A stretch of 64,000 bases of DNA from Deltaproteobacteria bacterium. Its GTDB lineage: Bacteria > Desulfobacterota > Dissulfuribacteria > Dissulfuribacterales > UBA5754. The notes beneath the pieces were generated by a model. It did no database searches. It was not told where the DNA came from and worked only from the letters and a program-made list of their open reading frames with translations. Position numbers and translations under genes: made by a program. The stretch lies in the NCBI GenBank assembly GCA_036574075.1, contig JAINCN010000030.1, positions 18,029 through 82,028 on the forward strand, given 5' to 3'. Positions within the stretch are counted from its first letter, which is position 1. Every line of letters starts with the position of its first letter. Below, one piece after another: positions 8,313 to 57,970 of this stretch.

Positions 8313-8485
8313 CCTGAATCCGCGAGCCTACGGCCGGGGTATTTGTTCCGTGCGGCAAATAGCCCCGTCCATGGGGGCAGATTTGCTGACGGCGCCCATC
8401 CGTGGGCGCCTCCATGCACAAATATCCCCGCCGTCAGCATATTCTATGAAATCGAAAGGTTGAGTGCATATCTCACAGATTCAGG
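8313..8485 (+). repeat. MITE-like palindromic element, copy B (both termini present)
   Basis: cctgaatccgcgag ... ctcacagattcagg termini; internal blocks as in the other copies. Confidence 0.8.
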
Positions 8486-17037: not shown

Positions 17038-17251
17038 GGCCGTCACAGAGACAGGATGACTTGGAGACAGATCCGATGCCGCTGAAAAAAAACCGATCTT
17101 CTGATCCAGCTCAAAAAAACCGATTCTCACGGCGTTGTTTCAATTTTCCAGTCCATGCGGCTGACGCTAACTACGCCTCATTCCTGGAAGATTTCGCATC
17201 TTGCATCCCGAGTTTTTTGAGCGGCATCATACCCCATAAGGTCTTTTAAAC

Positions 17252-33921: not shown

Positions 33922-34500
33922 ATGGCTGAAATACGAAGTTCCCTGGATATTGCTCTTGAAAAGGCCGCTCGGCTTGGCTCTGTCGACAAGGAAGAAATGG
34001 CGAGGGAGACACGGGTGGAACACGGTAGACGTCTGGCCGTAACGTTTCTCCAGTCCCGGGATGCCACGATGAGGTCCCTTCTCGAAGGTGTGGATCCCCA
34101 GGGCTTCCAGGATGTCATGACCGGGGTTTTGCAGGTCCTCATGAGGAATATCATCCTCCCCAGGGATGCACAAAGGACGGAGATTGACCGCGCCCTGACC
34201 GGAATCGGCGAGCTCAAGGGAAGCAGCGCTCGGGACATCCTTTCGCAGATCGACCAGCTCATCGATGCCTATATCAAGAACAAAAAACACTACTACGAAC
34301 AGTTGAAGGTCCAGATGGAAGGCAAGCTTGGGGGCCTGCAGGAGGCCATGGCTCAACAATATGGCATACGCGGCATGGCAAGGCTTTCGGCCGAATCCAT
34401 TCCCCAGTTCCAGCAGGAGTGGGCAAAACTCTCATCGGAAATAGACGAGCAGTTTCAGCAGAGGCTCGACTTGTTAAAGGCCAATCTGGAACATTTGTAG
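33922..34500 (+). CDS. hypothetical protein (helical)
   Basis: 192-aa ORF with coding-like composition; no motif I can name. Confidence 0.5.
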   Translation: MAEIRSSLDIALEKAARLGSVDKEEMARETRVEHGRRLAVTFLQSRDATMRSLLEGVDPQGFQDVMTGVLQVLMRNIILPRDAQRTEIDRALTGIGELKGSSARDILSQIDQLIDAYIKNKKHYYEQLKVQMEGKLGGLQEAMAQQYGIRGMARLSAESIPQFQQEWAKLSSEIDEQFQQRLDLLKANLEHL

Positions 34501-34502
34501 GC

Positions 34503-34653
34503 CCTGAATCCGTGAGCCTACGGCCGGAGTATTTGTTTCGTGCGGCAAATAGCCTCCTGTCCATGGGGGCGGATTTGCCGCTCAAGCCTATTTATGGGCG
34601 CCTCCATCCACAAATACCCCGGCCGTAGGCTTATGCTGTGAAATCGAAAGGTA
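34503..34653 (+). repeat. MITE-like element, copy D (right terminus replaced)
   Basis: cctgaatccgtgagcctacggccggagtatttgt...gaaatcgaaaggt, then abruptly continues into the family-2 repeat. Confidence 0.75.
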
Positions 34654-35190
34654 GGGAGGGGGTGCGGGGCAGTGCCTCATCGGCCGGATAACCGCTTTGG
34701 TGATGCAACTGCCTTTTCGGCCATGGACGCGAGGTGCCAAGTGAGGCCCTGCGGCCGCCTGCCCTGGCTTTCTGGATCCGGCCTGATTCAGCACTACCCC
34801 GCACCCCCTCCCTGGATTACATGGGCGTACTTCAAACCTTACACGAGGGTTTGGACGGATGGGTGCACGGCGCAAGTGGAGGCTGGTGGGGCGGGCCGTT
34901 GTGGAGGCGGGCGGATCCAGAAAGCCAGGATAAGCGGGCACCGGGCCTTGCATAGCACCTTGCGTCATCGGAAAAGACAGCCGCTACATCGCCAAAGCGG
35001 TTATCCGACCGCCGGAACAACGGCCCGCCCCACCTGCCCATGAATTTAGGCGGAAAGCGGATCCAGAAAGCCAGGATAAGCGGGCACCAGGCCTTGCATG
35101 GCACCTTGCGTCCTCGGACAAGACCGCCGCTGTATCGCCAAAGCGGTTATCCGACCGCCGGAACAACGGCCCGCCCCACCTGCCCATATT
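34653..35190. repeat. family-2 long hairpin repeats: one inverted unit plus two direct ~131-bp units
   Basis: Unit 1 (34653-34813) is bracketed by the perfect 17-bp inverted repeat agggagggggtgcgggg/ccccgcaccccctccct. Units 2 (34885-35034) and 3 (~35048-35180) share gcggatccagaaagccaggataagcgggcacc...ccaaagcggttatccgaccgccggaacaacggcccgccccacc, and unit 1 is their reverse complement at roughly 70-75% identity. Confidence 0.85.
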
Positions 35191-35299
35191 GAGGAATGCC
35201 TGACAGCCGGGAAACGGCAAGCTTGCCGAATCTGGCGGCCTTGTCTCCCCTGTATCATCCTATATGCGATGGCATTTATGGAACATGCGGGAGGCCGTC

Positions 35300-35584
35300 A
35301 TGGAGAACAGGGATCTCTATCTTGCTGCGTACGACATCACGGAGGCAAAGAGGCTCCGCGACGCCCTTAACGTACTAAAAGGCGTCTCCACTGGTGGCCA
35401 GAAGTCCGTATTCGAGTGTTTTCTCAACAACATCGAGAAGAAGGGGCTTCTTTCCCGGGTCGGCAGGATCCTGGATCCGGCTGAGGACCGGTTTCTCCTC
35501 CTTAGGCTCGATCCGCGTGCGCGGGTCCACACCCTCGGGATCGGGGTCGAGCCTTCCGATCCCCCGTTTTTCTATTTCGGGTGA
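35300..35584 (+). CDS. cas2: CRISPR-associated endoribonuclease Cas2 (copy a)
   Basis: 94 aa; MENRDLYLAAYDITEAKRLRDA...VFECFL...RFLLLRL ferredoxin-like Cas2 pattern with the N-terminal Asp; gggagg 6 nt upstream of ATG 35300. Confidence 0.85.
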   Translation: MENRDLYLAAYDITEAKRLRDALNVLKGVSTGGQKSVFECFLNNIEKKGLLSRVGRILDPAEDRFLLLRLDPRARVHTLGIGVEPSDPPFFYFG

Positions 35585-35588
35585 TGCC

Positions 35589-36563
35589 ATGGGAACGCTC
35601 TATCTCGACCGTTCAGGCCTGGAACTCCGGATCGACGGGGACGCCGTGGCCCTTTACACGCGTGGTGAAAGGAGCGGCACGGTCCCGATTGGCCTGCTCG
35701 AAAAGATCGTCATCAAGGGGGAGATTTCCTTAACGAGCAATGTCCTTGGAAGGCTTGCTGATGCCGGGGTATCTGTTCTCATGCTTTCGGCCCGTCACTC
35801 GCGAAGGGTCGCATTCGTGCACGGACGATTCCACAACGACGCCCGTATCCGGCTCGCCCACTACCGGGCCGTCCTTGACGACGAATACGCGCTTGGCTGG
35901 TCCCGCCGTATCGTCCGTGCGAAGATATCAGCCCAGGTCGCCTTTTTGAAAAGGGCCGGAGACGAGAAGCCGGAGGCCAAAAAGGACCTTTTCGGCCCCA
36001 TCGCCGGGCTCAAAAGCTGTGGTGAGGCCCTTTCAAACGCCGTCACCACCGACGGCGTACGAGGACTTGAGGGGGCCTCTGCAAGGCTCTATTTCGCGGG
36101 CCTTTCGCACCTCTTTCCGCCTTCGCTTCAATTCAACGGACGCAACAAGAGACCCCCTCGGGATCCTGTCAATGCAGTCCTTTCCCTCGCTTACACCCTT
36201 GCGCATCACGAGGCCGTGAGGGCCTGCCATCTGGCCGGCCTTGATCCGCTCCTCGGCTTTCTCCACAAGCCGGCCTGGGGCCGGGAATCCCTTGCCTGCG
36301 ATCTCATTGAGCCCTTTCGGCCCAGGCTGGATGCCTGGGTGTGGGGGTTATTCCGCGAAAGGATCCTCAGACCTGAGGATTTCCACCGGGACAAGGGTGC
36401 GGTCCTCCTCGGCAAGGCCGGACGTCACCGTTTCTACGAGGCATACGAGGCAAAGGGCCCAGTCTGGAGCCGGGCCCTCATCAGGCTCGCCCGTGCCCTT
36501 GCCTCCTCCGTGACGAAAAAGACCCCGGATCTCTTTCTTGCGGACGAGGAGGACGACTCATGA
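35589..36563 (+). CDS. cas1: CRISPR-associated endonuclease Cas1 (copy a, catalytic motifs intact)
   Basis: 324 aa; N-terminal beta domain TLYLDRSGLELRIDGDAVAL...; GLEGASARLYF (Glu), LDPLLGFLH (His), SLACDLIEPFRP (Asp/Glu). Confidence 0.9.
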   Translation: MGTLYLDRSGLELRIDGDAVALYTRGERSGTVPIGLLEKIVIKGEISLTSNVLGRLADAGVSVLMLSARHSRRVAFVHGRFHNDARIRLAHYRAVLDDEYALGWSRRIVRAKISAQVAFLKRAGDEKPEAKKDLFGPIAGLKSCGEALSNAVTTDGVRGLEGASARLYFAGLSHLFPPSLQFNGRNKRPPRDPVNAVLSLAYTLAHHEAVRACHLAGLDPLLGFLHKPAWGRESLACDLIEPFRPRLDAWVWGLFRERILRPEDFHRDKGAVLLGKAGRHRFYEAYEAKGPVWSRALIRLARALASSVTKKTPDLFLADEEDDS

Positions 36564-37342
36564 GAAGGCCGCTGTATCTCCTGAGAGGGGAAGGGACAGA
36601 GGTCCGGCTCGATGGACCCTCCCTCCTCGTTTCAGGCACACGCAGGGCGGACGGCCGTTACCCTCTGGCCCAGGTCAGCCGTGTGACCTCCGACAGCGCG
36701 GTCAGGTGGGAAACCGAGGCCATCATTGCATGCCTCGGAAGCCGCATCCCGGTGACGTTCGTCAGCGGCCGGGGCAGAATCATCGGATTCTGCCTGCCGG
36801 TCGGGGAGCTGAAATCCAGCAACGCATCGAAACTTCGTGAGTTTTTCGCCTTTCCGTTCTGGAAGGAGGTCTACGACAATTGGCTCTCAGCTGAGACGAG
36901 AAAGGCCGTTCTCGATCAACTCGATGCATTTCACGTCAGGACCGAGGATCTGAGGCCCATGGCGGCAAGGCGGTTTCTGCTTGACCGTGTAGCTGCAAAC
37001 GTGTCAAGGGCCGAGAGGGACCGGATCATGGACAGATTAAACGGGCTTGCTGGATCCCTCCTCGCAGGGCTCTTCTCCCATGAAAGGCTCCCAACCCGGT
37101 ATCCTGTTACAGGGGCAGGGGTGGTGAACCTGCACGAGGATTTCCTGTCCGTCATTTCCTGGGAGCTTTTGCCGATCGTAATGGAGGTTGCGAGAAGGGG
37201 CTACAGGGATCGCGATCCGAATAGCCTGGCCTTGCTTGTCGGCGCCTTCGAGAAGAGATCCACTGTGATCAAGGATCGGCATGCGCGACTCCTCGAAAGT
37301 CTTCTTCTGAGAATTCATGACGCCTACCTCGTTGGACAATGA
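36560..37342 (+). CDS. divergent Cas1-like protein (copy b, catalytic residues apparently lost)
   Basis: 260 aa; ATGA overlap with cas1a. The N-terminal PLYLLRGEGTEVRLDGPSLLV...IPVTFVSGRGRIIGFCLP parallels the Cas1 beta domain. The aligned GLEG reads GLAG, and no GFLH-type His motif was found. Confidence 0.6.
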   Translation: MRRPLYLLRGEGTEVRLDGPSLLVSGTRRADGRYPLAQVSRVTSDSAVRWETEAIIACLGSRIPVTFVSGRGRIIGFCLPVGELKSSNASKLREFFAFPFWKEVYDNWLSAETRKAVLDQLDAFHVRTEDLRPMAARRFLLDRVAANVSRAERDRIMDRLNGLAGSLLAGLFSHERLPTRYPVTGAGVVNLHEDFLSVISWELLPIVMEVARRGYRDRDPNSLALLVGAFEKRSTVIKDRHARLLESLLLRIHDAYLVGQ

Positions 37343-37345
37343 GTC

Positions 37346-37708
37346 ATGAGCGACCAAGGCAAGCGCCCCTATCTTGTTGCGTACGACATTGCTGATCCGA
37401 AAAGGCTCTGCCTCGTCCACAAGATCCTCACCAGATACGCCGTCCCTGTCCAGTATTCCGTGTTTATCGGCACCTTTACCCCCACGAACCTTGAGGCCCT
37501 CAAAAAGGAGCTTGTGCAGGTCATAGAAAATGACGAGGACGACATAAGAATGTATCCTATCTCACGCAACGCCGATCCCATCACCATCGGCCGGCACTTC
37601 CTGCCGGAGGATGTACTGCTTTTTATCCAGAACAAACGGGCTGATATCACGCCCCTTGTCAGGGGTGGAGTCCATGGGCATGATCTCTGCGACAAGAAGA
37701 AAAAATAG
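37346..37708 (+). CDS. cas2: CRISPR-associated Cas2 (copy b)
   Basis: 120 aa; KRPYLVAYDIADPKRL...VQYSVFIGTF...IRMYPI; 3-nt gap after cas1b. Confidence 0.85.
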   Translation: MSDQGKRPYLVAYDIADPKRLCLVHKILTRYAVPVQYSVFIGTFTPTNLEALKKELVQVIENDEDDIRMYPISRNADPITIGRHFLPEDVLLFIQNKRADITPLVRGGVHGHDLCDKKKK

Positions 37709-37809
37709 GAGGAAAAGTAAGCAAATGGCGAATTGGCTTTTCAAACGTTATCAAAATTGGCAAGGTGGCTTGTATGAGGCTGGAAATATTTCAAAAAAAA
37801 GGAGGAGCT
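37709..37809 (+). promoter_or_regulatory. putative CRISPR leader
   Basis: 101-bp AT-rich stretch between cas2b and the first repeat, with repeated attggc motifs and an A8 run. No promoter hexamers could be assigned confidently. Confidence 0.5.
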
Positions 37810-40800
37810 ATTGATCCGATTGCCCTGATGAAGAAGGGATTAAGACTTCCATGCAGAGATAAATCCGCCTAAATAGCACTGGCATTGATCCGATTGCCCT
37901 GATGAAGAAGGGATTAAGACACGGGAAAAGCCACCAACTTTCCCTGCTGGATCAATTGATCCGATTGCCCTGATGAAGAAGGGATTAAGACTCGTCGGTT
38001 ACGTGGGATATGATCAGTTGGGAGCCCGTCATTGATCCGATTGCCCTGATGAAGAAGGGATTAAGACGAAAAGACATGGCAACAATCACAGTAAGGAAAA
38101 AATTGATCCGATTGCCCTGATGAAGAAGGGATTAAGACCTCCATGCAGAGATAGACCCGCCGAAACAGAAATTGATCCGATTGCCCTGATGAAGAAGGGA
38201 TTAAGACACGTGAGCTGGGCGGAAACCCAGATTTTTCACGATTGATCCGATTGCCCTGATGAAGAAGGGATTAAGACCAGCAGCCGCGCAGCCAGATCGC
38301 GCGGCAGGCATTGATCCGATTGCCCTGATGAAGAAGGGATTAAGACCGTCGTGCCAGACGATGATCCGCGCAAATGAGGAATTGATCCGATTGCCCTGAT
38401 GAAGAAGGGATTAAGACGACAACGCACGTCGCTAATTCGAACACGCGTCGATTGATCCGATTGCCCTGATGAAGAAGGGATTAAGACAGATCAGTTTGTG
38501 CATAATCAGCAAATGTCTCGATTGATCCGATTGCCCTGATGAAGAAGGGATTAAGACCCAAGCCACAACTCTAATTTCGGACTGGGATAGAATTGATCCG
38601 ATTGCCCTGATGAAGAAGGGATTAAGACTTGAGTTTGATTTGTTTTCTTCCGGATCGTAAATTGATCCGATTGCCCTGATGAAGAAGGGATTAAGACAGG
38701 CTGAGGCCACCGATGCGGCAATAAACGCTATTGATCCGATTGCCCTGATGAAGAAGGGATTAAGACCTTCGCCCGTTTTTCATTGTTAACGGCCACGTAC
38801 ATTGATCCGATTGCCCTGATGAAGAAGGGATTAAGACTTATTAGTAGTTAATATAATCATCAATATCATCGATTGATCCGATTGCCCTGATGAAGAAGGG
38901 ATTAAGACTACAACAATCGCCATTTTTTTGCCCTCCTTAATATTGATCCGATTGCCCTGATGAAGAAGGGATTAAGACATTTCCCATTCTGCTTCTTCAT
39001 CCTCATCCTATTGATCCGATTGCCCTGATGAAGAAGGGATTAAGACTTGCCGATTAGGGCAAGTACTTTTTGCTCAGGTGTATTGATCCGATTGCCCTGA
39101 TGAAGAAGGGATTAAGACCGCTTGCGAGCGCTCTTGCCGATTCTCATCTATTAATTGATCCGATTGCCCTGATGAAGAAGGGATTAAGACTGACATTCCT
39201 CCTTCATTTATGTTTAGTGTTTTATTGATCCGATTGCCCTGATGAAGAAGGGATTAAGACCATTGTGCCCCTTGGGTTGGGATGGCGGCGCTATTGATCC
39301 GATTGCCCTGATGAAGAAGGGATTAAGACTTTTCCCTCTGTTGATTGTTAACGGACACGTACTATTGATCCGATTGCCCTGATGAAGAAGGGATTAAGAC
39401 AGATCATGGAGATTTTTTTGAACTTGAAACCCATTGATCCGATTGCCCTGATGAAGAAGGGATTAAGACTCGACGCTGTCCCATATTTTCATTTCCCATA
39501 CTATTGATCCGATTGCCCTGATGAAGAAGGGATTAAGACTTCTGTAGGATAATAACTATCAACAAGATCTTGGTATTGATCCGATTGCCCTGATGAAGAA
39601 GGGATTAAGACTGATTTGCCTTGCAGACCTCAGCGTCTGCAACATTGATCCGATTGCCCTGATGAAGAAGGGATTAAGACCCCTCGTTCTTGCAAAACTT
39701 GATTAATCCCTTGATTGATCCGATTGCCCTGATGAAGAAGGGATTAAGACATCCGGGCCGTCGATGTCCCGGATCCATGCATTGATCCGATTGCCCTGAT
39801 GAAGAAGGGATTAAGACCAGGGCGCTTGAAGATGTTGAGCCTGTCGGCATTGATCCGATTGCCCTGATGAAGAAGGGATTAAGACCGTTGCCTGCGCGCG
39901 GATTTTTAAAGCGCTTGCAAGTGGATTGATCCGATTGCCCTGATGAAGAAGGGATTAAGACCTCTCAAGGGGAGCCATCAAGAAAAGGGCGCCGCCTATA
40001 TTGATCCGATTGCCCTGATGAAGAAGGGATTAAGACGCCTTGTGTTGGGTAAGATTCAAAATTTTCACATTGATCCGATTGCCCTGATGAAGAAGGGATT
40101 AAGACAGAGATTATAGATTTCAGAAATAATTTCACCATCATTGATCCGATTGCCCTGATGAAGAAGGGATTAAGACCCGACCCTTAAGGTCATCATAGGG
40201 CTCGCCCTTGATTGATCCGATTGCCCTGATGAAGAAGGGATTAAGACGAGATCCGGGCCATCAATATCCCGGATCCAGGCCCATTGATCCGATTGCCCTG
40301 ATGAAGAAGGGATTAAGACCGACCTTTTGACTTATATCTCTTGTGAGTGTTCATTGATCCGATTGCCCTGATGAAGAAGGGATTAAGACTTGTGGGCAAT
40401 GTACTTGCCCACAAGGGCCATTACTTTCATTGATCCGATTGCCCTGATGAAGAAGGGATTAAGACACGAGGGGTTACCTTGCTTTCGGGCGTCCACTGCC
40501 ATTGATCCGATTGCCCTGATGAAGAAGGGATTAAGACGCCCCGAGGGTTAAGTTAGCCCTCAGGGCTTGTATCATTGATCCGATTGCCCTGATGAAGAAG
40601 GGATTAAGACCATAATCTTTCCTCCTTTAAATTAAGATTTATCGGCATTGATCCGATTGCCCTGATGAAGAAGGGATTAAGACTAGAAGACCGGAGCAGT
40701 TTCCAGTACATCCACATTGATCCGATTGCCCTGATGAAGAAGGGATTAAGACTTCCATAGATAGACGCCGTACCATCCATAAATATGGATTGATCCGATT

Positions 40801-42237
40801 GCCCTGATGAAGAAGGGATTAAGACACCGGCCTGATCCATGACTTTCTGAAAACTTGTATCTATTGATCCGATTGTCCTGATGAAGAAGGGATTAAGACG
40901 AAGGCGGATAACCCGCCTTTTCTCGTTTTTCGATTGATCCGATTGCCCTGATGAAGAAGGGATTAAGACTTTTTCTTAAGTGTGATTGTTGCCATTTTCT
41001 TCTATTGATCCGATTGCCCTGATGAAGAAGGGATTAAGACCCTATTAAGGCAAGCACTTTTTGCTCCGGCGTTAATTGATCCGATTGCCCTGATGAAGAA
41101 GGGATTAAGACAGCTCGGCGCAGTGTTCTTCGGGGACATCCACGATTGATCCGATTGCCCTGATGAAGAAGGGATTAAGACACCATGACCCCGGAGTGTA
41201 GCATGCCTGCCTTATTGATCCGATTGCCCTGATGAAGAAGGGATTAAGACTCCACGGACTGGGAAAGCTGTCAGCTTCCCATCAATTGATCCGATTGCCC
41301 TGATGAAGAAGGGATTAAGACTTATTGGTCGCGATATATTTCGCGACCAAGGTAAATTGATCCGATTGCCCTGATGAAGAAGGGATTAAGACCTATTTCG
41401 ATGCCACGACCATAAATAGACGACTCCATTGATCCGATTGCCCTGATGAAGAAGGGATTAAGACCCCCGAGCTTGTTAGGCTCGGGGTTGGAGCTCCATT
41501 GATCCGATTGCCCTGATGAAGAAGGGATTAAGACCGAATTTGATTTAGAATTAAGTGCTCTTTTTAATTGATCCGATTGCCCTGATGAAGAAGGGATTAA
41601 GACTTTTGCTCACTGTCCATGTGCGCAACGATTTTTATTGATCCGATTGCCCTGATGAAGAAGGGATTAAGACAGATAAAGACTGTTTCATAATTTCCTC
41701 CTTTATTAGATTGATCCGATTGCCCTGATGAAGAAGGGATTAAGACCGAATTTGATTTAGAATTAAGTGCTCTTTTTAATTGATCCGATTGCCCTGATGA
41801 AGAAGGGATTAAGACAGGCAGAGTCTATAGACTCTGCCTCTCCATGCATTGATCCGATTGCCCTGATGAAGAAGGGATTAAGACGAGCCCCAGTTTCCCA
41901 ATCTACTTCCGGGGCTGGGATTGATCCGATTGCCCTGATGAAGAAGGGATTAAGACGAAAGAGCCATGGGGACCTCCTTTTTTTGTTTATCATTGATCCG
42001 ATTGCCCTGATGAAGAAGGGATTAAGACGCACTAACTTTGAGTACTCTCTCCTTTCCTCCGATTGATCCGATTGCCCTGATGAAGAAGGGATTAAGACAG
42101 AAGTTTTTTCCATGGTTTCCTCCTTTCGTCATTGATTCGATTGCCCTGATGAAGAAGGGATTAAGACAATAAGCGGGACCAATGCCTCGTTCTGCTTAGG
42201 ATTGATCCGATTGCCATGATGAAGACTGTAGGGGCGA
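37810..42237 (+). CRISPR. CRISPR array: 63 repeats of 37 nt, 62 spacers of 30-39 nt
   Basis: Repeat ATTGATCCGATTGCCCTGATGAAGAAGGGATTAAGAC. Variants are R44 (40863, gattgTcctg), R62 (42131, attgatTcg) and the degenerate terminal R63 (42201, attgatccgattgccAtgatgaagaCTGTAGGGGCG). I parsed every unit: spacer lengths sum to 2097 nt. Orientation is set by cas-proximal leader, distal decay and the ATTAAGAC 3' end. Confidence 0.97.
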
Positions 42238-42293
42238 AAAATTTTCGTCCCTACAATTACTTTGATCCGATTGCCGGATGCACTGCGCTTATC
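42226..42293. repeat. REP-like palindromes and a repeat fragment at the array's distal end
   Basis: tgtaggggcgaaaaattttcgtccctaca hairpin, repeat fragment ttgatccgattgcc (42253-42266), then ccggatgcactgcgcttatccgg hairpin. Confidence 0.6.
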
Positions 42294-43067: not shown

Positions 43068-43245
43068 CCGTGAATCCGTGAGATATGCACTCAACCTTTC
43101 GATTTCACAACATAAGCCTACGGGCCGGGGTATTTGTGGATGGAGGCGCCCACGGACGGGTCTCGAACGGCAAATCTGCCCCCATGGATGGGGGCTATTT
43201 GCCGCACGAAACAAATACCCCGGCCCGTAGGCTCACGGATTCAGG
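43068..43245 (-). repeat. MITE-like element, copy E (reverse orientation, full length)
   Basis: ccgtgaatccgtgagatatgcactcaacctttcgatttcac...ggcaaatctgcccccatgg...ccgtaggctcacggattcagg. Confidence 0.8.
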
Positions 43246-49924: not shown

Positions 49925-52195
49925 CTACCAGACCCCGCGAAGCCCCAACTCCTTGCGCACCTTGTCCACCCGCCGCTCGAGATCCACCCTCCATTCGGCG
50001 TGGATCCGGGCGGCCGAGGGAGGGATGAGCTCCGGAAGGCCGTAAACGATACGATCCTCGGCCTGGCTCGTTTCGATGACCGCCTCAAGGGACCGTGCCC
50101 CGAACTTGTAGCGCGCAAGGAGAAGCCGGAGCAAAAGGCCTGAGGTCTTCCGCGCGGCCTTCTTCCAGTGGGTGTTCATCTGGTGGGCGATGACAAAGGC
50201 CCGTTTTATGAGAATCCGGTGCAGTTCGTCCAGCTCTTCGGGGCTGGCCGAATCGCTGAGAAGGCGGTCCGGAATCTCTATCCCCTCGATGTCCATGACT
50301 ACACGGAGCCTGCTCATGAAGTCCGGGATCTTGAGTGCTTTGACCGTATTCCAAGCGGACTTATCCTGCCGGGCAAGAAGCCCCAGCATGTCGTTCCAAG
50401 ACTCCTTGACCCCGCCTGCGAAAACAAAGATGGAGCGCCCGATGTAGCGAGGTGTGCCGTGGACGTATGTAACCCCGTCCTGCATGGAGGGTAGGAAATA
50501 ACGGAGATATCCGAACTCGTCGCCGTTGTAACGGCAGTCGAACTCGTCCCAGAAGGCGATGGGGATCTTCCCCTTTGCCACCGACGCCCTCACGAGATCG
50601 ATTGCCGAGTTGATCTCCTCAGGACCGGAAAACTGGGTGAGGTTGAACTGGAACAACTCAAAGGGATTTACCGTAAACCTTCGCGCCACGATTCGGGACA
50701 CCTCTTCCACAGCGAAGGATTTGCCGGATCCTGGAGGGCCGAAGACGCCGATGCAAAGTGGGCGCTTCACGAATTCCTTTGTGACGTAGCTTTCCATCAC
50801 CCCTTGGAGAGAGATGACGGGCTCGATCTCCGCGGGATCGACCGTGACAAAGGCACCCATCCTGAAGAGGCGCAGGTCGTCGAAACCGCCCCTGCGGTTG
50901 ACCTCCTCTTTCAGGCGGTGGAGAACAGAGAGGATCACCCGGAAGTATTCGGGGCGGAGCGCGCAGGCCTGTCCCAGGCCGAGCGTCCTCTCTTCAATAC
51001 CCCGGGTCGGACGCAGGAAAGACCTGAGGGCGGCCTTCCTCTCCATGCTCCATTCCTGGGATGAGACGAGTTCGAGGGTACGGTCGAAATCGGGACCTGG
51101 CTGCGGAAGATCGAAAAAATACACATCATCTCCGCGATCGAGGAAACTGGCCGGGGCCCCATTGGGATAGGTGGAGACGAAATCCAGGTTTGGGAACTCG
51201 AGCCCGTCTGTAAAATAATACCCATGGACAAAGATCTGGACCCAGTGCCGAAGGACCCGTTTGGAATAGTCGTAAAAAAAATTCCGCTGGGCAGGCACTT
51301 CTCCAAGTCTAAGACAGTCTACGACGAGCATGGCTGGGGCCAAGGTGTCATAGCAGGGAACGGACCCGGTCCGCCGGTTCGAGCCCCTGTCGGGTCGACT
51401 CCCCCTACCCTCCCTGTGCCTGAAATAGATGCCACAGGGCCCAGCATACAGAATCCCCCCTGGATACATCTGAACGATGACATGACACCGAAAGCGAGCC
51501 TGGTTGGCGTCCCAGAGGCCCACCTCCGGGCTCTTGAGCGCCCTCAGGATCATGGCGCAGACCGACTCCCAGAGGATGGCCGCATCCATCTCCATGCGGG
51601 ACGTATCGAGATCGGAACGGCGGCAAAAAAGGACGAACGATTCCCCGAACTCTCCGGCCCATTCCTCCCAACGTGCAGCAGATATCCCCATGGCCACGAC
51701 CCACGCCTCCGGGTTCAGCTCCTTCATCTGGCACGCGATTGCGGGCGGGGCACCTCCATCGTCTATTACGATGATCCCGGCGTTTCCACAAAGATGCTCC
51801 CTGGGATATTGCGCCAGGTCAAATTCCTCTGCCTCCACATGGCGTCCACCCGGCGGCAGGATCTGATGGACCATGAACCATCCATGCCCGCTCGATCCAT
51901 CGAGAAACCTCAACTGCTTGAAGATCTGGAAGATCTTTCTTTCCCTGCCATACGCTAAGGTTCGAATCTGGGGGGTGAGGCCGGCTGTCGTCAGAAAGGA
52001 CGAAAGCCACGTGAGAAACTGTTCCGAACGCCCCTCCTCCACAGTGACGTTTCCTGCGAGAAGCTCAATGAAATCACCAGGATCGTAGCCGTAGTCAGGA
52101 AGGCTCCCCTGGGCGAGCATCCGGACCTCCTGTACTGGCAGGTTTGTTATGGTCGCTCGGGAACCTAGGACAAGGATCTTTTTCTCAAGAGACAT
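49925..52195 (-). CDS. AAA+ ATPase with large uncharacterised N-terminal region
   Basis: 756 aa; Walker A GVFGPPGSGKSF, Walker B IAFWDEFD, FVFAGG sensor-like motif in the C-terminal third. I could not assign the first ~450 aa to any family. Confidence 0.7.
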   Translation of the reverse strand: MSLEKKILVLGSRATITNLPVQEVRMLAQGSLPDYGYDPGDFIELLAGNVTVEEGRSEQFLTWLSSFLTTAGLTPQIRTLAYGRERKIFQIFKQLRFLDGSSGHGWFMVHQILPPGGRHVEAEEFDLAQYPREHLCGNAGIIVIDDGGAPPAIACQMKELNPEAWVVAMGISAARWEEWAGEFGESFVLFCRRSDLDTSRMEMDAAILWESVCAMILRALKSPEVGLWDANQARFRCHVIVQMYPGGILYAGPCGIYFRHREGRGSRPDRGSNRRTGSVPCYDTLAPAMLVVDCLRLGEVPAQRNFFYDYSKRVLRHWVQIFVHGYYFTDGLEFPNLDFVSTYPNGAPASFLDRGDDVYFFDLPQPGPDFDRTLELVSSQEWSMERKAALRSFLRPTRGIEERTLGLGQACALRPEYFRVILSVLHRLKEEVNRRGGFDDLRLFRMGAFVTVDPAEIEPVISLQGVMESYVTKEFVKRPLCIGVFGPPGSGKSFAVEEVSRIVARRFTVNPFELFQFNLTQFSGPEEINSAIDLVRASVAKGKIPIAFWDEFDCRYNGDEFGYLRYFLPSMQDGVTYVHGTPRYIGRSIFVFAGGVKESWNDMLGLLARQDKSAWNTVKALKIPDFMSRLRVVMDIEGIEIPDRLLSDSASPEELDELHRILIKRAFVIAHQMNTHWKKAARKTSGLLLRLLLARYKFGARSLEAVIETSQAEDRIVYGLPELIPPSAARIHAEWRVDLERRVDKVRKELGLRGVW

Positions 52196-57490: not shown

Positions 57491-57795
57491 ATTGTAAACC
57501 TTTCAAGCAGATGAAACGGATTTAAGGCACGGAATTGCCATGGGCAAGGATCCTCGGGGCATTCCTGAGGTCCCATGACCAACCGGCAGTTCAGGATTGA
57601 AGATGAAGGCCACCGACAGGCATTCTCAAGGCGTTTTGAGGTTCCCCTAAGGTACTTATCGGCGACTATAGCATTTTCCCGAAACAGTGCAATTTTTTCA
57701 AAATCGACGTCCGGGGTGTTTGTGGATGGAGGCGTCCATGGACGGGGCTCGATGGGGCTTAAGATTTCTCCTCGCTATCGCTCGTCGAAATGACA

Positions 57796-57970
57796 CCTGA
57801 ATCCGTGAGCCTACGGCCAGGGTATTTGTTCCGTGCGGCAAATAGCCCCCGTCCATGGGGGCAGATTTGCCGTTCGAGCCCCGTCCATGGGCGCCTCACT
57901 CCACAAATACCCCGGCCGTAGGCTTATGCTGTGAAATCGAAAGGTTGAGTGCATATCTCACGGATTCAGG
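57796..57970 (+). repeat. MITE-like element, copy F (best-preserved reference copy)
   Basis: cctgaatccgtgag...ctcacggattcagg 14-bp terminal inverted repeats; internal inverted pairs cctacggccagggtatttgt/acaaataccccggccgtagg and gcggcaaatagcc/ggcagatttgccg; flanked by tgaca on both sides. Confidence 0.85.

Follow-up and report, generated by a model that had tools for sequence, protein, structure and literature searches.

Why should a CRISPR locus carry two different cas1-like genes and two different cas2 genes in one closely packed row? This question is raised by the module cas2a-cas1a-cas1b-cas2b, found in a 64-kb stretch of contig JAINCN010000030.1 of a Deltaproteobacteria bacterium (lineage UBA5754); the whole stretch, at its full length, is referred to below as the window. 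The solved integrases are composed of four Cas1 and two Cas2 subunits, and in the E. coli Cas1-Cas2 structures each Cas1 dimer consists of one catalytic and one non-catalytic protomer. We suggest that the module encodes an asymmetric integrase, in which Cas1a would be the catalytic and Cas1b the non-catalytic protomer, with a Cas2a:Cas2b pair as the bridge between the Cas1 dimers. Considering the catalytic status of the proteins, their conservation, the coupling of the genes and the available precedent, we give this proposal a probability of roughly 55%.

The four genes and their products

The genes are separated by a 4-nt gap (cas2a/cas1a), a 4-nt ATGA stop/start overlap (cas1a/cas1b) and a 3-nt gap (cas1b/cas2b), and the ATG of cas2a is preceded by GGAGG, located 5 nt upstream. 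An earlier description of this DNA, made from its letters only (hereafter the sequence-only reading), proposed four tightly packed plus-strand genes encoding two Cas2 and two Cas1-type proteins. The list of open reading frames (ORFs) agrees exactly with its coordinates and junctions, and Pfam and NCBIfam searches assign the products to the same two families (PF09827 twice and PF01867 twice). The term 'mirror-symmetric', used in the same description, is appropriate for the order of the gene families, but not for the strand, as all four genes are encoded on one strand.

Cas1a matches PF01867 over profile positions 1-282 of 283 (E=1.4e-75, 254.6 bits, cut-off 22.3); this is its sole match above the curated cut-off, with no fused reverse transcriptase (RT). 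Its score against TIGR00287 is 208 bits (cut-off 71.7). As judged from the alignment of orthologs, in which residues E161, H226, D238 and E241 are invariant (40/40 sequences), Cas1a retains the full set of catalytic residues.

For Cas1b the match to PF01867 (E=6.3e-6, 26.0 bits) is only slightly over the cut-off of 22.3 and is confined to residues 8-83, while the score against TIGR00287 (18.2 bits) is under the cut-off of 71.7. An AlphaFold2 model of the protein, obtained with a 75-sequence alignment, has a pLDDT (predicted local distance difference test) of 95.2 and a pTM (predicted template modelling score) of 0.92. The best 50 PDB matches listed by Foldseek for this model were all Cas1 or casposase chains, and its comparison with Thermotoga maritima Cas1 (4xtk) gave a TM-score of 0.74-0.77 over approximately 300 columns. 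In addition, hhalign aligned the Cas1b and Cas1a families over their whole length with a probability of 99.4%. The model thus predicts for Cas1b the two-domain Cas1 fold, with an N-terminal beta-sandwich and a C-terminal helical domain.

The active site appears to have been lost from this fold. In the hhalign alignment Cas1b lacks about 40 residues matching Cas1a positions ~150-189, i.e. the segment that holds the catalytic Glu161 and an RNRRPP motif. The column aligned to His226 (Cas1b position 185) contains mostly R, P or G, and that aligned to Glu241 contains R in 31, A in 10 and E in 9 of the 75 Cas1b sequences. Only the Asp aligned to Asp238 remains, in 61% of the family. On the basis of these columns Cas1b is predicted to be catalytically dead, and the pairing of an active Cas1a with a degenerate Cas1b, put forward in the sequence-only reading, is supported by the state of the catalytic positions in both proteins.

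What, then, is conserved in Cas1b? Among 31 loci the mean pairwise identity of its N-terminal domain is 47%, the same as that of Cas1a (47%), while for the C-terminal domain it is 24% in Cas1b versus 55% in Cas1a. In solved structures of Cas1 the dimer interface is made up by the N-terminal domain. As this domain of Cas1b is conserved and the C-terminal one is not, selection acts mainly on the N-terminal domain and not on catalysis. The ratio of nonsynonymous to synonymous substitution rates (dN/dS) was computed for all four genes against two close relatives of the window. The value for cas1b (0.25-0.29) indicates purifying selection; the others are 0.11-0.14 for cas1a, 0.17-0.22 for cas2b and 0.03-0.05 for cas2a, the most conserved of the four genes. 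The C-terminal domain of Cas1b has motifs specific for the family, namely W108, ER113-114, DLRP130-133, W201 and FE231.

A word-index search with Cas1b retrieved only three relatives, and an exhaustive profile search far more, namely 654 clusters (50% identity), of which 393 have E<1e-10. Almost all contain proteins of 245-285 aa that are matched along their full length, and most members have no extra domain. Cas1b proteins of Acidobacteriota (loci L020, L024 and L030) carry a C-terminal extension of about 65 aa ending in SLR(S/T)S(I/V)(K/R)I(L/V)R.YL, and that of locus L036 has a low-complexity insertion. Neither the extension nor the insertion restores the catalytic segment.

Both Cas2 proteins exceed the cut-offs of the respective families, i.e. 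PF09827 (cut-off 23.8; Cas2a: E=5.7e-11, 42.9 bits; Cas2b: E=1.2e-18, 67.5 bits) and TIGR01573 (cut-off 24.5; 27.6 and 41.4 bits, respectively). The Asp at the end of strand 1 is conserved in the context AAYDI in Cas2a and VAYDI in Cas2b, and the hydrophobic strand followed by a YDI motif, noted earlier from the translations, is present in both (LYLAAYDI and PYLVAYDI, respectively). The two proteins of the window are 27% identical. Their orthologous groups are reciprocally monophyletic, with identities of 55% (Cas2a) and 42% (Cas2b) within the groups and 26% between them.

A terminator-like hairpin with a T-run is located at 35537-35563, inside the 3' end of cas2a, just ahead of cas1a. It probably occurs by chance, as fewer such sites are present than expected from shuffled sequences. 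A promoter and terminator scan of 35000-37900 revealed nothing exceeding that expectation.

Table 1. Features of the adaptation locus, in window coordinates
Feature	Position	Strand	Description	Basis
cas2a	35300-35584	+	94 aa, Cas2 paralog A	PF09827, TIGR01573
cas1a	35589-36563	+	324 aa, full-length Cas1, predicted to be catalytically intact	PF01867, TIGR00287
cas1b	36560-37342	+	260 aa, predicted Cas1-fold paralog without catalytic residues	PF01867 N-terminal domain, PDLC01185
cas2b	37346-37708	+	120 aa, Cas2 paralog B, C-terminal extension	PF09827
CRISPR leader	37709-37809	+	101 nt, A-rich	sequence, alignment of leaders from 26 loci
CRISPR array	37810-42167	+	62 repeats of 37 nt, 61 spacers	
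Trailer	42201-42290	+	degenerate repeat remnants	sequence past last repeat

Conservation of the module in genomes and metagenomes

Are the four genes one unit, or do they merely happen to be neighbours in this contig? All three relatives of Cas1b found with the word-index search have the cas2-cas1-cas1b-cas2 layout. A scan of one genome per species, performed with a Cas1b motif derived from a 13-sequence subset, yielded 36 loci, distributed among Chromatiaceae, Competibacteraceae, Pseudohongiella, several Alphaproteobacteria and Acidobacteriota. Marichromatium gracile DSM 203, Plasticicumulans acidivorans DSM 23606, Thiorhodococcus mannitoliphagus DSM 18266 and Vineibacter terrae are examples of hosts available in culture. 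Wherever the contig is long enough, cas1b is surrounded by cas2a, cas1a and cas2b, all on one strand and with an unchanged order, and the 4-nt ATGA overlap of cas1a and cas1b is the commonest junction across the loci.

In the converse test, 80 metagenome loci were collected through Cas1a. The gene cas1b is present in 57 of them, including 46 with the complete four-gene module and 11 in which the contig ends before cas2b is reached. Seventeen loci have the order cas2a-cas1-cas2b and no cas1b, five are too short for judgement and one (L103) has another arrangement. Among approximately 100 loci examined, cas1b was never seen outside the four-gene context, and a tblastn search of 72,556 plasmids with a central member of the Cas1b family gave no match.

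These data show that the four genes constitute a widespread and conserved unit, far beyond chance. The tight coupling stressed in the sequence-only reading is reflected in their common inheritance across Gamma- and Alphaproteobacteria and Acidobacteriota; the complete arrangement is also found in metagenomes, and separate cas2a-cas1a and cas1b-cas2b loci, which would have indicated a fusion of two systems, were not seen in the relatives. The idea of two mirrored pairs fares less well. Two distinct Cas2 and two types of Cas1 are indeed encoded, but the logic of pairs is weakened by the 17 loci with cas2a-cas1-cas2b.

How the three- and four-gene forms are related was addressed with a midpoint-rooted neighbour-joining tree of Cas1a, from which one three-gene locus (L088) was excluded. 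Ten three-gene loci form one clade, which groups with three loci that carry cas1b, away from the main cluster, and six further ones are scattered among the four-gene loci. This topology suggests, but does not prove, that cas2a-cas1-cas2b is the older core, that a duplication of cas1 then gave rise to cas1b and that some loci lost it later.

Single loci depart from the common pattern. In L110 (4001-6689) the gene order is cas1a-cas2a-cas1b-cas2b. In L038 (1425-2543) cas1b is split into two ORFs, and in L019 (10764-11121) cas2b is split; both cases could represent frameshifts or assembly errors.

The array, its leader and the type III neighbourhood

The module is followed by a long CRISPR array (Table 1), the repeat of which is ATTGATCCGATTGCCCTGATGAAGAAGGGATTAAGAC (37 nt); two copies differ from it by one mismatch and the other 60 are exact. 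The spacers are 30-39 nt long. Since the array begins at 37810, the leader has only 101 nt, which corrects an earlier note. The degenerate remnants at the far end mark the old end of the array, therefore the leader is on the cas2b side, and it is from this side that the array is read and extended.

The same organization recurs elsewhere, as in nearly all loci the array begins about 70-220 nt past cas2b. The related repeats have 36-37 nt, with a strongly conserved 3' half, CCCTGA....AAGGGATTAAGAC, comprising a short stem-loop and then an 8-nt tail, and this half is found in four-gene and three-gene loci alike. A search of Rfam with the first repeat gave only a sub-threshold match to CRISPR-DR32. 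The leaders also have a common block. In the window it reads TTGGCAA, lies about 55 nt upstream of the first repeat and is shared with distant loci, and in the distant leaders (L009-L040) it takes the form AACTTT...AAAA-TTGGCAAC...TTG at the same distance. It might serve the integrase or a host factor as a docking site. A sigma-54 promoter was considered for the TGGCAA...TTGC block of the leader and rejected, because the GG-to-GC spacing, judged by eye in a subset of the leader loci, is longer by one base than it should be and the -12 element is frequently missing.

Several spacers resemble one another. Spacers 53 (41535) and 56 (41747) are identical, and the pairs starting at 37847/38139, 38767/39330, 39047/41041 and 39751/40248 share similarity over 14-27 nt each, which gives the impression that sampling returned to identical or related target regions. 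No spacer matched the rest of the 64-kb window.

Which interference machinery does the module serve? Among the large ORFs scanned in the window, which are housekeeping genes and include mutS, an amidase gene, a transketolase gene, a flagellar operon, menaquinone genes, lolA, nadA, purL and peptidase genes, no CRISPR effector gene was found, and no RT gene was present among the scanned neighbours of the module. Pfam analysis of 121 ORFs upstream of the module in 24 genome loci identified RAMPs (30), the Cas10 palm domain (12), Csm6-HEPN (8), Cmr3 (5), Csm1_B (4), Csm2 (4) and Card1 (3), and no type I marker was present among the 25 most frequent Pfam families of these ORFs. For instance, Csm2, Cas10 and CARF genes lie beside the module in L001, CARF-HEPN and Cas6 genes in L003, and RAMP, CARF and Card1 genes in L043. 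The three-gene loci are accompanied by Card1, a CARF protein (NE0113 family), Cas6 and RAMPs. The module therefore normally accompanies type III effectors and nucleases activated by cyclic oligoadenylates.

Locus L003 is 80% identical to the window, and the similarity begins just 85 nt upstream of cas2a; further upstream, Cas6 and a CARF protein are encoded in L003, whereas dispersed repeats are found in the window. In view of this comparison and of the type III neighbours of the relatives, the 'adaptation-only' character attributed to the module in the sequence-only reading results from a local rearrangement. It is true for this window, but it is not a property of the family, the members of which adjoin type III effector and cyclic-oligoadenylate-signalling genes.

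The borders of the locus contain further repeated sequences. Inverted copies of a ~52-bp dispersed repeat (34601-34652 and 43094-43146, 96% identical) bracket the block of cas genes and array, and other copies occupy intergenic positions (1074-1119, 8409-8460, 57707-57732 and 57894-57945). This repeat may be a REP (repetitive extragenic palindromic)- or MITE (miniature inverted-repeat transposable element)-like sequence, and it may be linked to the separation of the module from the effector genes. At 34681-35187, just upstream of cas2a, there are direct and inverted copies of a GC-rich element of ~146 bp, two of them in tandem (34905-35041 and 35048-35187), which had no match in Rfam. Related copies are located upstream of cas2a in L005, and a neighbouring stretch of L005 (228-356) matches 17101-17229 of the window, between flagellar genes. 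On the other side of the module, the alignment of L003 (5375-7059) to the window stops about 180 nt past cas2b, where the first two repeats of the window array lie. Past this point L003 encodes helix-turn-helix and Mu-transposase-like proteins, and a mobile element may have cut its array. Two window ORFs gave no match: that at 33922-34500 (plus strand, 192 aa), situated between a kinase-like gene and the repeat region, in Pfam or NCBIfam, and that at 49925-52195 (minus strand, 756 aa) in Pfam.

A putative asymmetric integrase and its alternatives

We did not find any paper on a second dead Cas1, on the cas2-cas1-cas1-cas2 layout or on paired Cas2 families in the full-text library that was searched. 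Nevertheless, the sequence-only claim that no such subtype has been described needs qualification. For the window Cas1b the best match (E=7.7e-17, covering only profile positions 1-113 of 246) is the PADLOC-DB profile PDLC01185, whose one-line description reads 'Cas1, diverged variant, second in the loci'. The same profile is the best family for all 75 of the 75 Cas1b members tested (best E=2.5e-27). The position of Cas1b as the second cas1, directly past the canonical one, is conserved across the loci, and one member is named 'CRISPR-associated endonuclease Cas1' by NCBI. The family is large, conserved and catalogued, but apparently uncharacterised.

A need for two different Cas2 proteins also has a precedent. 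In the type III-D system of Vibrio vulnificus YJ016, both Cas2A and Cas2B are genetically required for spacer acquisition together with an RT-Cas1, and the authors proposed a Cas2A:Cas2B heterodimer (PMC6821258). That module, likewise type III-associated and equipped with two different Cas2, has Cas1 fused to RT, adjacent cas2 genes with ~70% identity and no second Cas1 (PMC6821258). The module described here lacks an RT domain and includes a dead Cas1; its cas2 genes lie on either side of the cas1 genes, and their products share ~26% identity. Two cas2 genes per operon are shared with the dual-Cas2 RT-Cas1 modules in general (RT-CRISPR clades 6 and 13), but the RT-Cas1 fusion is not.

Compared with the canonical Cas1-Cas2 of the E. 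coli type I-E system (4p6i, 5ds4, 5vvj), the same two folds are present, the catalytic set of Cas1a is complete, the Cas1b model superposes on the Cas1 chains of the canonical complexes and the array likewise adjoins a leader. The differences are the four polypeptides instead of two, one dead Cas1, the order cas2-cas1-cas1-cas2 and the Cas2 paralogs, which are only 26-27% identical, unlike the single Cas2 of the canonical integrase. An asymmetric integrase is not without parallel, as in the type I-G system of Geobacter sulfurreducens an extra subunit reportedly makes the complex asymmetric and sets the orientation of the spacer. The Cas4-Cas1-Cas2 of this system (7mi4, 7mi5) is the best sequence match of the Cas1b N-terminal domain among solved structures (E=0.0019), and its type is the best NCBIfam match of Cas1a. 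However, the module has no Cas4 domain or gene, and any asymmetry would stem from paralogous core subunits rather than from an added nuclease.

Based on our observations, we propose that the module and the array form the spacer-acquisition part of a type III-associated CRISPR lineage, in which Cas1a would be the sole catalytic subunit of the integrase. Cas1b probably arose when cas1 was duplicated in tandem within an older cas2a-cas1-cas2b module, and it may have been kept as a structural subunit. Each Cas1 dimer would then be a Cas1a:Cas1b heterodimer, with Cas1b in the position that is non-catalytic in the solved homomeric complexes, and the central bridge would be a Cas2a:Cas2b heterodimer. 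Such a complex would lack two-fold symmetry, which could aid discrimination between the leader and spacer sides or fix the orientation of the spacer with neither a protospacer-adjacent motif (PAM) nor Cas4. New spacers would be inserted at the repeat adjoining the leader past cas2b, and the CRISPR RNAs (crRNAs) would presumably serve in trans a type III effector whose genes lie elsewhere in the source genome.

Several of our own results weigh against this proposal. No effector was found among the scanned large ORFs of the 64-kb window, which leaves the present function of the module in the source genome unproven. Because the three-gene relatives lack Cas1b, their integrase can apparently work without it, and Cas1b could be an accessory rather than a core subunit. 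The genes look coupled for approximately 1:1:1:1 synthesis, while the proposed complex requires 2:2:1:1. The midpoint-rooted neighbour-joining tree does not decide between gain and loss of cas1b, and the gene order of L110 fits a view of two pairs equally well.

The main rival explanation follows directly from the three-gene relatives: Cas1b, perhaps with Cas2b, would be an accessory or regulatory factor acting outside a Cas1a4:Cas2a:Cas2b core, e.g. in recognition of the leader or repeat, in capture or measuring of prespacers, or in damping of Cas1a through inactive dimers. In the 17 loci without cas1b the arrays are nonetheless long and belong to the same repeat family, the fast-evolving C-terminal domain keeps family motifs and could form a new binding surface, and the leaders share a conserved block. 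On the other hand, the part of Cas1b under the strongest constraint is the N-terminal domain, through which Cas1 dimerises in the solved structures, the ATGA overlap suggests equimolar co-synthesis with Cas1a, and an extra domain is absent from most members. We regard such an accessory role as a serious possibility, though clearly a less probable one than the asymmetric integrase. A variant in which each Cas2 stays with its neighbouring Cas1, giving a one-ended Cas1a2-Cas2a:Cas2b-Cas1b2 complex with a single catalytic end, agrees with the window order, where each cas2 adjoins one cas1, and with L110, where the pairs are preserved. Full-site integration consists of two transesterifications, one at each repeat end, and a dead end would permit half-sites only. 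As, moreover, both Cas2 paralogs work with a single Cas1 in the three-gene relatives, we consider this variant unlikely.

Two simpler explanations can be dealt with more briefly. If the pairs cas2a-cas1a and cas1b-cas2b were independent adaptation modules placed side by side by chance, the two cas1-like and two cas2 genes would be accounted for superficially. However, across several phyla essentially all related loci share the order, with a single array and a single repeat family, Cas1b without catalytic residues cannot integrate alone, and its gene was not seen outside this context in about 100 loci. The synteny data contradict this explanation, which is very improbable. Even less credible is the view of cas1b as a duplicate that no longer functions and is decaying. 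Its missing catalytic residues, the fast evolution of the C-terminal domain and the split ORF of L038 could be taken as signs of decay; however, the dN/dS ratio given above, an ORF intact in nearly all loci, the confident model (pLDDT 95) and 393 diverged clusters of the same length are contrary to what a pseudogene would show, and the conservation and selection data contradict this possibility.

The asymmetric integrase can be taken one step further, to an obligate Cas1a2:Cas1b2:Cas2a:Cas2b complex whose asymmetry would dictate, in a type III system, which way a spacer is inserted or how the repeat end on the leader side is selected. Type III systems use no PAM. We offer this extension only tentatively, and on balance doubt it. 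If it were true, the module would be a genetically hard-wired solution to how spacers of type III systems gain the orientation that yields transcript-complementary crRNA.

In this module the catalytic and structural jobs of Cas1 appear to be split between two genes, and the Cas2 homodimer to be replaced by two paralogs. Such a heteromer, if real, would amount to a natural experiment that shows which functions of Cas1 belong to the non-catalytic protomer, and at the same time to a ready-made asymmetric integrase, which bears on the orientation of type III spacers without PAM or Cas4 and could serve directional DNA recording. The family comprises hundreds of diverged clusters and is present in cultured strains, and is thus accessible to experiment.

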